From: Promethearchaeota archaeon
Lineage (GTDB): Archaea; Asgardarchaeota; Lokiarchaeia; Sigyniarchaeales; SOKP01
Length of the DNA: 14,202 nt
Assembly (NCBI GenBank): GCA_048938025.1
Contig: JBHLMP010000056.1
Coordinates: forward strand, 5,731-19,932
Direction of reading: 5' to 3'
Shown here: piece after piece, positions 55 to 3,417 of the stretch
Layout: every line of letters starts with the position of its first letter
Numbering within the stretch: the stretch's first letter is position 1
Translations under genes and position numbers: made by a program
Notes under the pieces: generated by a model
What the model saw: only the letters and a program-made list of their open reading frames with translations
Told to the model about the DNA's origin: nothing
Database searches by the model: none

Positions 55-1713
55 TTAATATAATATAATTCCGAATGCTAGTAGTACCAAACTTAAGACA
101 AATAAAATTTTATTTACCACACTAAATATTGGATATTCTTCTTGAATTTCTCTTGGACTTGTAGCCATTGTGTATCCACTAAATGACATTGTTGAGAAGA
201 AAGTAATCCAAAAGTAAAAACATATATGCCAGAGTGTATAATTTATTGAATCATGGATTAAATAGGATAAACTCCCGAAGACAATAATATTAATTGTCCC
301 AAAAAAAATCCCTTTGAATATGAATCTTCTAGTGAATTTAGAAAGGGGAAATAATAGTATTATATTTAAATTCGCAAGTAGTATCCAGAGAGTAATTTCA
401 CCAATCCACCATAATTTATTAAACCAATTTATTGCTAAGAATAGTATTATTAGAGCAATTAAAGGTAAGAGAAATAATTTTCGGAATAAAAATGTCGTGT
501 GAGTTATTCCGGCACGAATTCGATAAAATAGTGTAAATTTTGCAAGTTTCATAATTTTAGGTTTTCGAACTGGTTTATCCTCTATAAATTGAGGTATATG
601 TTTAGACCACACGGGACCATATTTAATTTTAAATGGAAATTGTTCTGACTTATTCGGCAGCTGAGGTATTGCCACTCCTCCAGCTGAGAGTTGCGGGAGT
701 AGTAAGATTTTTTCTTTAGTTAGATTTTTAATCTCTGTCGCTTCTACAGCCTCAAGAAGCTGGTTATTGCCAAAATCATTACCACGAGCAGCACACCATA
801 CATTTATTCCATTTGAATCTAAACATAATACCCAAGCATCGATTCCTTTAAGATCACGCATAACTTTAATATATGTAAATTCGTAATTGGCAGTTACAAT
901 TATCGGTGATGTTTCATTAGGAGTCCCAGATTGATATATTCCAGGTTCAATAGGAACGCGATCAACTTGTCCTGTAAAAATACAACGATAAATTCTTAGT
1001 TGTGATCGCAGTCCTGTAAATCTCTTTTTATTAGGTCTATAATAACCAGGCTCATTTTTTTCATTATCATTAACTTTTTGTAGTTCTATTGCTTGAATCG
1101 AACCATGTTTCCATCTTTTTAGGGAATTGATTTTAAATCCTATAGGTTCTATATAATTAAAAAACCTTTTAACTAAAAATGTACTCTTTAAGCGAAGTCG
1201 TTTTAATTTTTTTCTATACCACCATCTTTTAATCTTAAATGTTAATTTCCAAAAACCAGAGGGTATAAACTCAGCAGCTAAAATTAGGCGTCCATCTTGT
1301 TTTAAAACGTTCCAAACGTTCCTAAGGAAGATTTGCTGTTCTAAAGGGCGAAGTTCAGATAACATAAAAGTACTTACAACTATATCTTGAGAGCGAGAAT
1401 CAACCTGTAGCTCATTAAATGAGCCAATTTGATATACTAGTTTGCCAGTAGATAAATCATTAGGATAATTTTGCATTGCATAATTAATCATATGGAAATT
1501 TCTATCAATAGCAATAACATTATTCCCTTTTAAAGCCAATTTTGTCGCAAGAGAGCCAGTTCCACATCCTATTTCTAATATTGGCCCTGAAGAATTGGTA
1601 TGATTTATAACCCAGTCTTGAACTTCAAGATTTACTCCCTTTGTAAGAGAAGTAAATTTAGAATCATAAGATTCTGGTTCCTCTTCCAGTTTTCGCATAT
1701 ATACGACTGCCAT
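55..1713 (-). CDS. Fusion of a class I SAM-dependent methyltransferase and an HgcA-like corrinoid-binding/transmembrane protein
   Basis: N-terminal ~215 aa: motif I LEIGCGTG (1555-1578), VIAIDRN, QDIVVSTFMLSE, VLKQDGRL. Middle: HgcA/CdhD-type EPGIY..G.P..SPIIVTANY, WVLCLDSNGINVWCAARG (NVWCAARG at 781-804), LLPQLSAGGV, YGPV. C-terminus: about 5 hydrophobic helices with FSGYTMATS..EIQEE, resembling the HgcA FTGxSxxTS..GVxxE motif. Confidence 0.88.
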   Translation of the reverse strand: MAVVYMRKLEEEPESYDSKFTSLTKGVNLEVQDWVINHTNSSGPILEIGCGTGSLATKLALKGNNVIAIDRNFHMINYAMQNYPNDLSTGKLVYQIGSFNELQVDSRSQDIVVSTFMLSELRPLEQQIFLRNVWNVLKQDGRLILAAEFIPSGFWKLTFKIKRWWYRKKLKRLRLKSTFLVKRFFNYIEPIGFKINSLKRWKHGSIQAIELQKVNDNEKNEPGYYRPNKKRFTGLRSQLRIYRCIFTGQVDRVPIEPGIYQSGTPNETSPIIVTANYEFTYIKVMRDLKGIDAWVLCLDSNGINVWCAARGNDFGNNQLLEAVEATEIKNLTKEKILLLPQLSAGGVAIPQLPNKSEQFPFKIKYGPVWSKHIPQFIEDKPVRKPKIMKLAKFTLFYRIRAGITHTTFLFRKLFLLPLIALIILFLAINWFNKLWWIGEITLWILLANLNIILLFPLSKFTRRFIFKGIFFGTINIIVFGSLSYLIHDSINYTLWHICFYFWITFFSTMSFSGYTMATSPREIQEEYPIFSVVNKILFVLSLVLLAFGIILY

Positions 1714-1737
1714 AAGCTCTCGATATATTTCTAATTT

Positions 1738-2838
1738 TTAATTTAACTCCCAAAAACCTTTCTTTCTTAAATATCTACCTAAATATACTATAGAAAGCAT
1801 CACAGGAACTTCCCAGAATAACCCCATGGTTGTACCTAAAGCAGCAATTGATCCAACTCCATATATAGCTATAGCTGTAGCAATTGCAATCTCGAAATGA
1901 CTTGAAGAACCTATAATAACCGTAATCACTGCTTCCTTATATTTTAATTTAAAGAGTTTCGTGATTAATACATTATAACCGACTACAATGACGAACCCAA
2001 CTAAGAGTGGAATAGAAACTATTAATAAATAATTCGGATTATTTATCAAAACATCACCATTTAATGAAAATAAGACAATTAATGTTGTTAACAATGCTAT
2101 AATCGAAATCTTCCCAACAAAAGGACGATATGTATTGTTAAACCAATCATCTCCTTTAGATGCAATAATCAATCGTTTACTGAGTAAGCCTAAGAATAAT
2201 GGAAGCCCAATAAAAAATACCAGGGAAACCAATAGAAGTACCCAATTAATAGGAATATTTTTAATACCTGTTAAAAACGTAACCATTGGAACATATAGAA
2301 ATATAATTGTTATTGTATTCAAGCTTGTATTCACTACATTCTGTTCTTGGTTTCCTTTGGCCATCCAACCCCATACTAAAACCATTGCTGTGCATGGACT
2401 TGAACTTAGAAGTATTATTGCTACTGTTAATTCTTTTATTGTATTGCTAGTTCCTTGCAAAAATAGATTTACCATTGCTAGACCTACAAAAGGCGCAATA
2501 AGCCAATTTGATACTAAAGTTAAGATAATTGGTTTAGGATTTTTCCCTAATTTTTTAAGTTCAGATGCTTGCAGATTTAACATTGCAGGGTACATCATTA
2601 AAAATAAACATATACCTATTGGTATTGAGATTCCGCCAATCTGCAAAGAATCGATGGCTTCACTTATTCCCGGAATAATCTGTGAAAGTACAATTCCGAT
2701 AATTATGCATAAGGCAACCCAAAGTGGAAGAAATTTTTCGAAAAAACTGATTTTTTTAAGCTTTTCTTCTTGAATTTTTGATACGTTTAGAATTTTTGAT
2801 TCAATTTTGTTTAAATCTTCTTCTTGCATTTTATTCAA
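1738..2838 (-). CDS. acr3: Acr3-family arsenite/antimonite efflux transporter
   Basis: FFEKFLPLWVALCI, PIGICLFLMMYP, NWLIAP, SPCTAMVLVW (conserved Cys), GSSSHFEIAIA, EVPVML; about 10 TM helices. The ORF track starts at TTG 2838; ATG 2829 is an alternative start. Confidence 0.95.
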   Translation of the reverse strand: MNKMQEEDLNKIESKILNVSKIQEEKLKKISFFEKFLPLWVALCIIIGIVLSQIIPGISEAIDSLQIGGISIPIGICLFLMMYPAMLNLQASELKKLGKNPKPIILTLVSNWLIAPFVGLAMVNLFLQGTSNTIKELTVAIILLSSSPCTAMVLVWGWMAKGNQEQNVVNTSLNTITIIFLYVPMVTFLTGIKNIPINWVLLLVSLVFFIGLPLFLGLLSKRLIIASKGDDWFNNTYRPFVGKISIIALLTTLIVLFSLNGDVLINNPNYLLIVSIPLLVGFVIVVGYNVLITKLFKLKYKEAVITVIIGSSSHFEIAIATAIAIYGVGSIAALGTTMGLFWEVPVMLSIVYLGRYLRKKGFWELN

Positions 2839-2898
2839 AATAAGATTTAATTATATTTTTTTCTATTTTTAACTTCTAAAGCCTGAAATATTAATAGG

Positions 2899-2933
2899 AT
2901 GGATCAAATAAAAATATTTCGATATGAATCCAT
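2899..2933. promoter_or_regulatory. Candidate ArsR operator (imperfect inverted repeat) in the divergent acr3/arsR promoter region
   Basis: TCAAATAAAAAT|ATTTCGATATGA (2904-2927) pairs 9/12 about its centre. Outer arms ATGGAT (2899-2904) and ATCCAT (2928-2933) pair with a 1-nt offset. Confidence 0.45.
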
Positions 2934-3012
2934 TAAGATTAATATGAATAAAACTTTTATAATTTCATAGCTTCTATATAGATGATAATTAAAAATTTTG
3001 TAATAACTAAAG

Positions 3013-3417
3013 GTGATTTATATAAAAACAGACCGTGCGAGTGAAATAAAAGGAATGTTATGCAATTGCAGTGAATGTATTGATAGCAGTGACTATTTTA
3101 AAAATTTACAAAAATTAGGAAAAAATTTAAAGTTAGATAAAAAATTTAATTCAATCTTAGCATTTTTAAATGCTCTAGGAAACAAAGAACGTTTATTTAT
3201 AATAAATGTTTTAATAGAAAAAGAGCGTTGTGTGTGTGAGTTAGAGGCTATTTTAGATAAATCCCAACCTTCAATCTCTCATCATTTAAGGGAACTAGAA
3301 AGAGCAGATTTAATCCGAGGTTGGAAAAAAGGTAAATTTACTTATTATACTTTACTAAAAGAAAATTTAGAAAAAAATTTAGAAATTTTAAATCAAGAAT
3401 TTAATATTGATTATTAA
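3013..3417 (+). CDS. arsR: ArsR/SmtB-family metalloregulator
   Basis: ALGNKERLFII, alpha3 box ERCVCEL, HTH SQPSISHHLRELERADLI, wing KKGKFTYYTL, plus an extra N-terminal CNCSEC. Divergent from acr3. Start is uncertain: GTG 3013 overlaps an SD-like AGGTGA, and there is an ATG at 3055. Confidence 0.93.
   Translation: MIYIKTDRASEIKGMLCNCSECIDSSDYFKNLQKLGKNLKLDKKFNSILAFLNALGNKERLFIINVLIEKERCVCELEAILDKSQPSISHHLRELERADLIRGWKKGKFTYYTLLKENLEKNLEILNQEFNIDY

Follow-up and report, generated by a model that had tools for sequence, protein, structure and literature searches.

A 14,202-bp stretch of a Promethearchaeota archaeon genome (contig JBHLMP010000056.1, forward-strand positions 5,731 to 19,932; hereafter the window, part of the contig handled here as C77) is best read as containing the front half of an arsenic operon of Asgard archaea, of a type that we call Loki-type. 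The operon is composed of arsR and, divergently, acr3, a gene encoding a fusion of a CpaM-like methyltransferase with an HgcA-like corrinoid protein (cpaM::hgcA-like), a gene for an HgcB-like ferredoxin, and two small genes termed p106 and p120. We tentatively favor the reading that this operon encodes an ArsR-controlled methyl relay, in which a methyl group would pass from S-adenosylmethionine (SAM) to cobalt and from cobalt to a thiol-bound metalloid as the putative substrate; we regard it as a serious possibility that falls somewhat short of probable. What the analysis shows is the identity and spacing of the genes, the conservation of their linkage and a predicted contact between the fusion protein and the ferredoxin; what induces the operon, which compound donates the methyl group, what accepts it and what is formed are inferred.

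The archaeal genome is 3.52 Mb in size and 96.7% complete, with a G+C content of about 28%. The fusion gene (P0001) occupies positions 55-1713 of the window on the minus strand and encodes a protein of 552 amino acids. The acr3 gene (1738-2838, minus strand) encodes 366 amino acids from a TTG codon, the ATG at codon 4 being a likely alternative start, and the spacer from its stop codon to the ATG of the fusion gene (1714-1737) is exactly 24 bp. The arsR gene (3013-3417, plus strand) encodes a 134-aa protein of the ArsR/SmtB family and is separated from acr3 by 174 bp of divergent promoter and operator region (2839-3012). These open reading frame (ORF) calls agree with an initial annotation of the window, which had described acr3 and the fusion gene as co-oriented and 24 bp apart, with arsR divergent. 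Its statement that the window contains neither arsC nor arsM is also correct, as none was found among the 12 scanned ORFs of at least 134 amino acids.

The rest of the operon lies outside the window. The spacer on the 3' side of the fusion gene (1-54) contains T-rich repeat copies (TATTTTTTTATACCTT...) and abuts a 100-N assembly gap; the T-rich copies are found on both sides of this scaffold gap between the fusion gene and the hgcB-like gene (window 1-54, L006:5590-5780). Past the gap, on the minus strand, are the genes for the HgcB-like ferredoxin (118 aa, L006:5228-5584), p106 (106 aa, L006:4873-5193) and p120 (120 aa, L006:4481-4843), followed by a gene for the proteasome-activating ATPase (PAN) and then by other housekeeping genes. 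In the closest relative locus (L009), whose fusion protein is 91% identical, the hgcB-like gene, p106 and p120 follow the fusion gene gap-free with spacers of 50, 34 and 23 bp, respectively.

The fusion protein and its place among HgcA-like proteins

The initial annotation had recognized an HgcA-like fusion protein, and profile scans bear this out, assigning residues 3-212 to a CpaM-like methyltransferase and residues 253-546 to an HgcA-like part. The methyltransferase domain (residues 1-215; window 1069-1713, minus strand) carries motif I as LEIGCGTG (1555-1578), which holds C50, the single cysteine of the domain that had been noted before. Residues 3-212 score 137.3 bits against CpaM (NF043040, cut-off 180) and cover profile positions 2-215 of 216; the domain also scores 55.7 bits against PF08241. 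NF043040 is the NCBIfam family named 'corrinoid protein-associated methyltransferase CpaM', and the CpaM-type association with an HgcA-like corrinoid protein is present here in its strongest form, a fusion.

The corrinoid-binding domain (residues 253-392; window 538-957, minus strand) scores 54.7 bits against PF03599 (CdhD) and contains the cap-helix motif NVWCAARG (781-804), with Cys307 encoded at 793-795. In HgcA the cap-helix motif is N(V/I)WCA(A/G)GK, with the cobalt-ligating cysteine. The cap helix of the fusion protein reads NVWCAARG(N): the cysteine is kept, and the GK of NVWCAAGKG of true HgcA is replaced by RG. All 35 aligned fusions keep C307, which is one of five cysteines in the whole protein (50, 244, 297, 307 and 498). 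The membrane domain (residues 393-552; window 58-537, minus strand) has five predicted helices and a conserved MSFSGYT motif. Residues 253-546 score 162.2 bits against HgcA (NF040863), below the cut-off of 275; the score of the protein against the HgcAB-like fusion family (NF043039) is 163.8 bits, below the cut-off of 285 and over only profile positions 14-254 of 350, and a family scan with a motif check found no Fer4 motif within it.

An AlphaFold2 (AF2) model of the fusion protein, built with 35 aligned relatives, is confident throughout (mean predicted local distance difference test, pLDDT, 90.1; predicted template modeling score, pTM, 0.86). In it, a Rossmann methyltransferase and a linker helix are followed by the corrinoid domain, whose cap helix is at 305-311, and by five membrane helices (395-427, 431-460, 464-487, 490-512 and 520-551), so that residues 395-551 have the five helices of an HgcA-type C-terminal membrane domain. 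The best match of the model in the PDB library is a deposited HgcAB model (9a0b_A, E 7.8e-13, 334 aligned columns), and the remaining matches listed are all class-I methyltransferases. Structurally, the methyltransferase domain comes closest to enzymes that methylate lipids and quinones, for example phosphatidylethanolamine (PE) N-methyltransferase and Coq5. Since a SAM-dependent methyltransferase is fused to the corrinoid domain, and the fusion is kept down to about 30% identity, the sequences are most simply read as indicating SAM as the methyl donor to Co(I).

Homologs of the fusion protein number 392 at E<=1e-5. The best 120 of these are full length (at least 89% query coverage) and 63-97% identical to the query; every organism label given is Asgard, and their annotation goes no further than 'methyltransferase domain-containing protein' or UbiE. 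We sampled 301 Asgard genomes that were at least 80% complete, 91 of them from the family of the window's genome. With an ortholog defined by E<1e-140, or as a contig-end fragment of at least 52% identity, and with family counts made by hand from the tables, fusion orthologs are present in 68 of the 91 genomes. More distant full-length fusions, at about 30% identity, occur in Thorarchaeota and in metagenome-assembled genomes (MAGs) of Chloroflexota, Poribacteria and Zixibacteria. One locus labeled Candidatus Nanopelagicaceae bacterium (L023) matches the Asgard loci in every gene of its order SMC, 424-aa gene, arsR, DUF166, acr3, fusion, hgcB, p106, p120. The fusion encoded there falls inside the Asgard clade, and the bacterial bin label is probably wrong for this contig.

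A search with the HgcA-like part alone against 1.84 billion representatives yielded 941 relatives. Among 150 representatives, most unfused proteins of about 300-420 amino acids have NVWCAAGKG, and we took these as true HgcA. The methyltransferase fusions have NVWCAARG(G/N/D/I), NVWCAAGGG or NVWCGAGAG, and the ferredoxin-fused HgcAB-like proteins have other variants of the cap-helix motif. A tree of HgcA-like domains with 43 rows, from a quick search and with no outgroup, places 19 true HgcA on one side with support of 100 (Shimodaira-Hasegawa-like approximate likelihood ratio test, SH-aLRT), and all methyltransferase fusions, the window's included, on the opposite side together with HgcAB-like proteins. 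The two major clades described in the accessible text of Lin et al. 2023 match this split. According to the same text, the HgcA alignment had its first 327 positions removed, which could hide N-terminal methyltransferase domains, and the Pyrococcus furiosus protein, the sole tested member of the fused clade, did not methylate mercury.

The HgcB-like ferredoxin and the small downstream proteins

The ferredoxin encoded downstream of the fusion gene has two CxxCxxCxxxC motifs and a tail of the form GCGCLW...CAC...SCCGG. Its best family is HgcB (NF040864), at 48 bits and under the cut-off of 99; the features of HgcB, namely two 4Fe-4S motifs, a central cysteine (as GCGC) and a terminal CCGG, are all present. 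Asgard partner ferredoxins keep both 4Fe-4S motifs, replace the GVGCA of true HgcB by an invariant GCGCLW, end in the same CC as true HgcB, and in most cases possess a further CxC.

The complex of the HgcA-like part with the ferredoxin was predicted with an interaction score (ipSAE) of 0.65, compared with 0.00 for the best of three controls. The mark set for this score is reached by 58 of 80 solved complexes and by 2 of 110 mismatched pairs, and the runs gave a contact agreement of at least 67% with a partner pLDDT of at least 67. In the predicted interface, ferredoxin residues 75-85, which include GCGCLW, pack against C307, a conserved loop at 341-351 and the membrane motif at 509-513.

The p106 protein has no family match in Pfam and NCBIfam scans. 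Its 199 homologs bear only Asgard labels and are all annotated as 'hypothetical'. The model of p106 (pLDDT 81.5) is a beta-alpha-beta-alpha-beta-beta-alpha fold, for which the best Foldseek matches are generic thioredoxins; these matches are weak (E 2.5e-3 and above; query-normalized TM-score 0.45-0.64). An invariant CxC occupies the position of the thioredoxin CxxC active site, and some orthologs have added N-terminal CCG...CC tails. We considered p106 as ArsD and rejected this assignment: there is no match to the ArsD family at E<=0.01, the fold matches are generic thioredoxins, and an ArsD-like role is only an idea. The p120 protein likewise has no Pfam or NCBIfam match, and a lead from the Atlas to 2-oxoglutarate (2OG)-Fe(II) oxygenases, with only 135 of 256 features shared, was discarded as probable chance. 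One locus (L066) has a second arsR next to its p106 gene, 3.6 kb from the fusion gene.

The resemblance to HgcA and HgcB (NF040863/NF040864) raises the question of mercury. The fusion and ferredoxin could form a variant of HgcAB in which the SAM-dependent methyl donor is built in, with control by an ArsR-family sensor as in Pseudodesulfovibrio and with acr3 as a functionally unrelated neighbor. The shared features are substantial: an HgcA-like fold with an HgcAB model as its best PDB-library match, a corrinoid domain with an invariant cap-helix cysteine, a five-helix C-terminal membrane bundle, a 2x[4Fe-4S] ferredoxin that is encoded separately downstream and has a central cysteine and a terminal CC, and an arsR that is often found upstream. 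In 40 loci of true hgcA, scanned in the same way as the fusion loci, an arsR-like gene is located upstream within about 1.4 kb in 12 and within 7 kb in 14, acr3 is adjacent in three and an arsM-like gene in one; arsR upstream of hgcA is also found in print. The fusion differs from HgcA in its N-terminal SAM methyltransferase, in having NVWCAARG instead of NVWCAAGKG, in its sub-cut-off scores (162 versus 275 bits on HgcA), in the position of its domain with HgcAB-like fusions on the other side of the tree (SH-aLRT 100), and in its place in an operon with acr3 or arsM, a linkage that points to arsenic. With the negative result for the tested member of the fused clade, as given in the accessible part of Lin et al. 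2023, we judge mercury methylation improbable.

A parallel for the regulation is Pseudodesulfovibrio mercurii ND132, where, in the part of the preprint open to us (Gionfriddo et al., bioRxiv 10.1101/2022.10.17.512643), ArsR2 controls hgcAB and responds to arsenic and S-adenosylhomocysteine (SAH). Both systems have an ArsR-family regulator beside an HgcA-type gene pair, and the available text describes the arsenic response as experimentally shown in ND132. In ND132, by that account, a co-directional four-Cys arsR accompanies true HgcAB with no adjacent ars genes, whereas the window has a divergent CVC-type arsR, and acr3 is part of the operon. In another study, again as far as its accessible portion goes, arsR upstream of hgcA is mainly bacterial, bacteria making up 13 of the 14 confirmed methylator genomes that have such an arsR. 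The background that the initial annotation had cited, ArsR control of hgcAB and ars genes beside hgcAB in some methylators, is therefore on record in the accessible parts of the literature.

Arsenic genes and their linkage to the fusion

ArsR scores 75.1 bits on NF033788, passing the cut-off of 55, and 53.7 bits on PF01022. Its five cysteines, all conserved across aligned orthologs, are located in RCVCEL in helix 3 (C73 and C75) and in an N-terminal C17-x-C19-xx-C22; the CVC in helix 3 of ArsR is presumably the thiolate sensing site. The alignment of the arsR-acr3 spacer over 8 loci has 64 invariant DNA columns, with conserved blocks ATGAAATTATAAAA(A/G)TTTTAT and ATTCA.ATCGAAATATTTTTAT...TCTAT.A.TA. 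The gene that follows this conserved region is acr3 in the window and DUF166 in L031, and in a group of acr3-less loci that we call class B it is the fusion gene itself; the region may comprise an archaeal B recognition element (BRE) and TATA box with a putative operator. A search for a specific operator gave many weak inverted repeats, not clearly above the AT-rich background, and none is named here. Because ArsR has the CVC motif and three N-terminal cysteines, and the conserved promoter stands directly before the fusion gene in the acr3-less relatives, metalloid-responsive expression of the fusion is plausible.

The permease scores 279.1 bits against TIGR00832, 3.7 short of the cut-off of 282.8, covering model positions 1-325 of 327, and 131.9 bits against PF01758. 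Its C149 is found in SSSPCTAMV, and the conserved cysteine of Acr3 lies in such a P-C-x-A-M-V stretch. On the basis of these matches we treat it as an arsenite efflux permease of the ACR3 family. It is encoded by the only acr3 in the genome. Profile searches of the 96.7%-complete genome detected no ArsM over the cut-off (best 67 versus 263 bits), no pI258-type ArsC over the cut-off, no Grx-type ArsC and no ArsP. Matches to PF02374 are uninformative about ArsA, as they were also found in all 14 control genomes, and a glyoxalase gene (L006:1186-1638) was rejected as ArsI with 27 bits on ArsI/CadI versus a cut-off of 116 bits.

The initial annotation had suggested a neighborhood survey of homologs as a check of the linkage. 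Using the window proteins in tblastn searches against 35 distinct Loki-type loci of species-representative genomes, we found arsR upstream of the fusion gene in 18 of the 31 evaluable loci and acr3 between arsR and the fusion gene in 15 of 33; the HgcB-like gene directly follows the fusion gene in all 31 loci with downstream DNA. The spacers are short, with 24-55 bp between acr3 and the fusion gene (13 loci), 24-73 bp between the fusion gene and hgcB, and 22-30 bp between p106 and p120 (most loci). The acr3-fusion linkage is more than chance, since 13 related loci again have 24-55 bp between the two genes. In the Thor-type fusions, which are about 30% identical, a co-directional arsR is immediately upstream in five of six loci, and its product has the CVC motif (ACVCEF) and N-terminal cysteines. 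The linkage is therefore conserved in the Loki-type loci and, for arsR, in the Thor-type loci; it does not extend to bacterial fusions, where neither arsR nor acr3 is nearby in any of 19 loci.

In the fusion tree, acr3-bearing loci are paraphyletic, and the five arsR-bearing, acr3-less loci of class B are nested among them as sister to the window's clade; a further clade with support of 100/100, class C, has neither arsR nor acr3. The neighborhood could be an inherited gene order with no shared function or regulation. SMC, the 424-aa gene and PAN are also kept beside acr3-bearing loci, and a single origin of the acr3 linkage explains the fusion tree. Set against this are the short same-strand spacers of 24-73 bp, the class B loci, which have different surroundings and have lost acr3 and yet keep arsR and the same promoter region, now directly before the fusion gene, the differing arrangement of arsR in Thor-type loci, and the insertion of arsM and DUF166 within the same gene string. 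Four observations exceed synteny, namely the class B promoter, the Thor-type arsR, the ars-type insertions before the fusion gene, and the second arsR in L066. We consider inherited order with no functional link quite improbable.

The 424-aa gene in the window (3598-4872, plus strand) encodes a conserved protein with no family match and lies directly before a gene for an SMC-like ATPase (4880-8368, plus strand); both are syntenic with arsR in most acr3-bearing loci. The window also encodes a small GTPase (9572-10207, minus strand) and a beta-helix/NosD-like protein (13123-14127, minus strand).

The gene string between arsR and the fusion gene is variable and arsenic-flavored, with DUF166 located there in several loci. 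A cysteine-rich DUF166 (DfsP-like) gene is found in or beside operons of L014 (6142-6873), L017, L023, L030, L031, L044, L066, L111 and L112, where it separates arsR from acr3 or arsM from the fusion gene. In a MAG labeled Promethearchaeum (L038:4906-6666), the ORFs from acr3 to the fusion gene encode an unassigned protein of 111 amino acids, a membrane-anchored TlpA-like thioredoxin with CxxC, and a DsbD/CcdA-type (DsbD_TM) protein. The class B loci have FMN_red (iron-sulfur flavoprotein-like), two Flavin_Reduct and cupin genes downstream of hgcB (L020:7363-7932 and L012, L013, L015 and L029), and some have an extra class-I methyltransferase or an EamA transporter beside the fusion-hgcB pair; their products are possible electron suppliers or exporters. 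In L055 (3250-6950), a 3.7-kb insert with minus-strand ORFs of 852 and 202 amino acids and no Pfam match separates acr3 from the fusion gene. The acr3 gene there is truncated to 322 amino acids, with a second copy of its last ~24 codons immediately ahead of the fusion gene. The insert looks like a mobile-element insertion.

A further claim of the initial annotation, that the fusion may fill the role of ArsM, is not borne out. In the 91 genomes of the window's family, 23 have ArsM and the fusion, 45 the fusion alone, seven ArsM alone and 16 neither, which gives ArsM in 34% (23/68) of genomes with the fusion versus 30% (7/23) of those that lack it. The closest relative genome, whose fusion protein is 90% identical (G273), has ArsM. 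In two relatives arsM shares the gene string: one has arsR and, divergently, DUF166-acr3-arsM-fusion-hgcB-p106-p120, with arsM adjoining the fusion gene (G193), and the other arsM-DUF166-fusion-hgcB, with arsM one gene away (G112). Their ArsM proteins score 347 and 363 bits, respectively, versus the cut-off of 263. Since the distribution is not complementary and arsM-fusion operons exist, the fusion and ArsM are not simple alternatives, and a general replacement of ArsM by the fusion is rejected. For the window's own genome, where the profile search gave no ArsM over the cut-off, such a role is still conceivable. Many Asgard ArsM matches (e.g., in G060, G076, G066 and G046) contain one in-frame TAA or TAG in the matched stretch.

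Several points weigh against the proposed methyl relay or limit its reach. ArsR-family sensors with cysteines of this type can respond to other thiophilic metals. The adjacency of the fusion and hgcB-like genes in the window's own genome rests on scaffolding, the two being contiguous in relatives, and the passing complex score may partly reflect likeness to the computed HgcAB model 9a0b, which is in the PDB library. Among the sequencing runs listed as containing the locus, 20 are DNA and none is RNA. With the acr3 form paraphyletic and class B nested inside it, one ancestral arrangement with later losses suffices, and the linkage is partly ordinary synteny, as SMC, the 424-aa gene and PAN are common to most acr3-bearing loci. 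The coexistence of ArsM with the fusion makes a plain ArsM substitute unlikely, and the accessible part of the ND132 preprint (bioRxiv 10.1101/2022.10.17.512643) states that this strain made no methylarsenicals. Moreover, one Loki-type clade has no nearby arsR or acr3 (five loci in the tree and six more in a wider scan). No ars family is in the top 25 of a Pfam tally of bacterial-fusion neighbors (107 ORFs, 18 of 19 loci), which include ferredoxins (7), TetR (4), glycine-cleavage P protein (4) and DsbA-like thioredoxins (3), and the partner ferredoxins of Chloroflexota have no cysteine tail. Given the clade and the bacterial loci with no ars genes, the core machine is not tied to arsenic everywhere.

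It is conceivable, if unlikely, that the operon encodes an arsenic-regulated machine that methylates another acceptor, for example a thiol, a lipid or another membrane small molecule or protein, and helps under metalloid or thiol stress, with arsR and acr3 as mere regulatory context. Such an acceptor would suit the ars-free bacterial and Loki-type loci, the tailless Chloroflexota ferredoxins, the structural proximity of the methyltransferase domain to lipid and quinone enzymes, and the class B neighborhoods, where the added genes encode flavin reductases, an EamA transporter and a cupin and are not ars genes; the presence of ArsM in the same operon likewise suggests a non-redundant job for the fusion. 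It is countered by the Asgard ferredoxins, which retain exactly the HgcB cysteine features that mark a metal-handling tail, by the cysteine-rich p106 and the CC-rich tails that accompany the machine, and by the predicted interface, which puts GCGC beside the cap-helix cysteine.

A candidate methyl relay from SAM to a metalloid

The methyl relay that we tentatively favor would operate as follows. Binding of As(III) or Sb(III) to the thiolate site of ArsR, formed by CVC and the N-terminal cysteines, would release the divergent promoter, and arsenite would be exported by Acr3. The fusion protein and the ferredoxin would constitute a membrane-anchored methyl relay of the HgcAB type. The 2x[4Fe-4S] ferredoxin would reduce the Cys307-ligated corrinoid to Co(I), the fused class-I methyltransferase would load Co(I) with a methyl group from SAM, and the methyl group would be transferred to a metalloid held by the ferredoxin cysteines (GCGC, CxC and the terminal CC), producing a methylated arsenical or antimonial. 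The CxC thioredoxin fold of p106 could serve as a metalloid chaperone or a thiol reductant. Thiol-redox genes recur as neighbors, encoding the TlpA-like thioredoxin and the DsbD_TM protein in L038 and DsbA-like proteins in the bacterial fusion loci, and would suit a thiol-based hand-over of the substrate.

Like ArsM (NF008823), the fusion contains a SAM methyltransferase of class-I fold and is found in an operon with arsR and acr3. ArsM has a conserved As(III)-binding set of cysteines, whereas the methyltransferase domain of the fusion has one cysteine and the protein scores 21.8 bits, far below the 263-bit cut-off; true ArsM coexists with the fusion and can be its neighbor. Another related system is the pair of CpaM and the HgcAB-like protein (NF043040 and NF043039), with a shared side of the tree and a CpaM-type methyltransferase tied to an HgcA-like protein. 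In that pair the methyltransferase gene is separate and the ferredoxin is fused C-terminally, while in the present operon the methyltransferase is fused N-terminally and the separate ferredoxin has a long cysteine-rich tail. The same genome encodes such a pair on contig C23, with a stand-alone CpaM (L007:6532-7194, 239.6 bits) and an HgcAB-like fusion (L007:7210-8304, 364 bits). Its neighbors include a CoA-transferase/acetyltransferase, a U32-like peptidase-sized ORF and SCP2-like small proteins, with no ars genes nearby.

In methylcobalamin chemistry, a B12-bound methyl group is passed to arsenic under anoxia in methanogens. The corrinoid (MtaB-linked) arsenic chemistry of methanogens resembles the proposed relay in the exchange of a B12-bound methyl group with arsenic under anoxia. 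It differs in that the methanogen reactions are side reactions of methanogenesis enzymes, whereas the operon would encode a dedicated, membrane-bound machine in a non-methanogen. The accessible part of a 2026 preprint (10.64898/2026.08.27.747368) ties methanogen corrinoid methyltransferases to anaerobic arsenic demethylation, with co-transcribed acr3-like genes, and notes that the known C-As lyase ArsI needs oxygen. By analogy the machine could work in reverse as an anaerobic demethylase, with Co(I) stripping methylarsenicals and Acr3 exporting the released arsenite; an efflux pump gene directly upstream would suit an arsenite product, and the activity would be non-redundant with ArsM. Fusion of the corrinoid domain with a class-I SAM methyltransferase suits methyl loading and not removal, however, and family scans show that the operon encodes no methyl acceptor enzyme, which leaves demethylation very improbable.

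The link between hgcAB and arsenic regulation is already known for true bacterial hgcAB, and NCBIfam names CpaM and the HgcAB-like fusion. Our search of the open-access literature, outside of which are supplementary tables that may list such genes, found no methyltransferase-HgcA fusion, no CpaM by name and no HgcAB-type arsenic methylation. We likewise found there no report of this third architecture, in which a methyltransferase is joined to an HgcA-like protein and the HgcB-like ferredoxin is separate, of how abundant it is in Asgard archaea, or of its place in acr3 and arsM operons.

What HgcAB does natively and where its methyl group comes from have long been open questions. The fusion family bears on the methyl source by its architecture, a SAM methyltransferase fused to a corrinoid domain, and on the native function by its context, an operon with acr3, and in relatives arsM, under a CVC-type ArsR. 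Its placement in the only recognizable arsenic-resistance operon of the genome makes the native job of the HgcA family testable. A broader reading, which we offer with considerable doubt, is that Asgard archaea possess a dedicated ArsR-controlled, B12-dependent metalloid methylation that is unlike ArsM and works beside it, in which an HgcB-type ferredoxin would both re-reduce cobalt and, on its cysteine tail, present As(III) or Sb(III), with the methyl group delivered at the membrane; arsenic would then be the original job of the HgcA superfamily and mercury a later side activity. If arsenic or antimony is methylated, anoxic marine sediments would hold an unrecognized source of methylated metalloids, one that surveys based on arsM overlook; if mercury is methylated, hgcA-based surveys miss the fusion family. 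Either way, the fusion family provides a compact three-gene system for testing.

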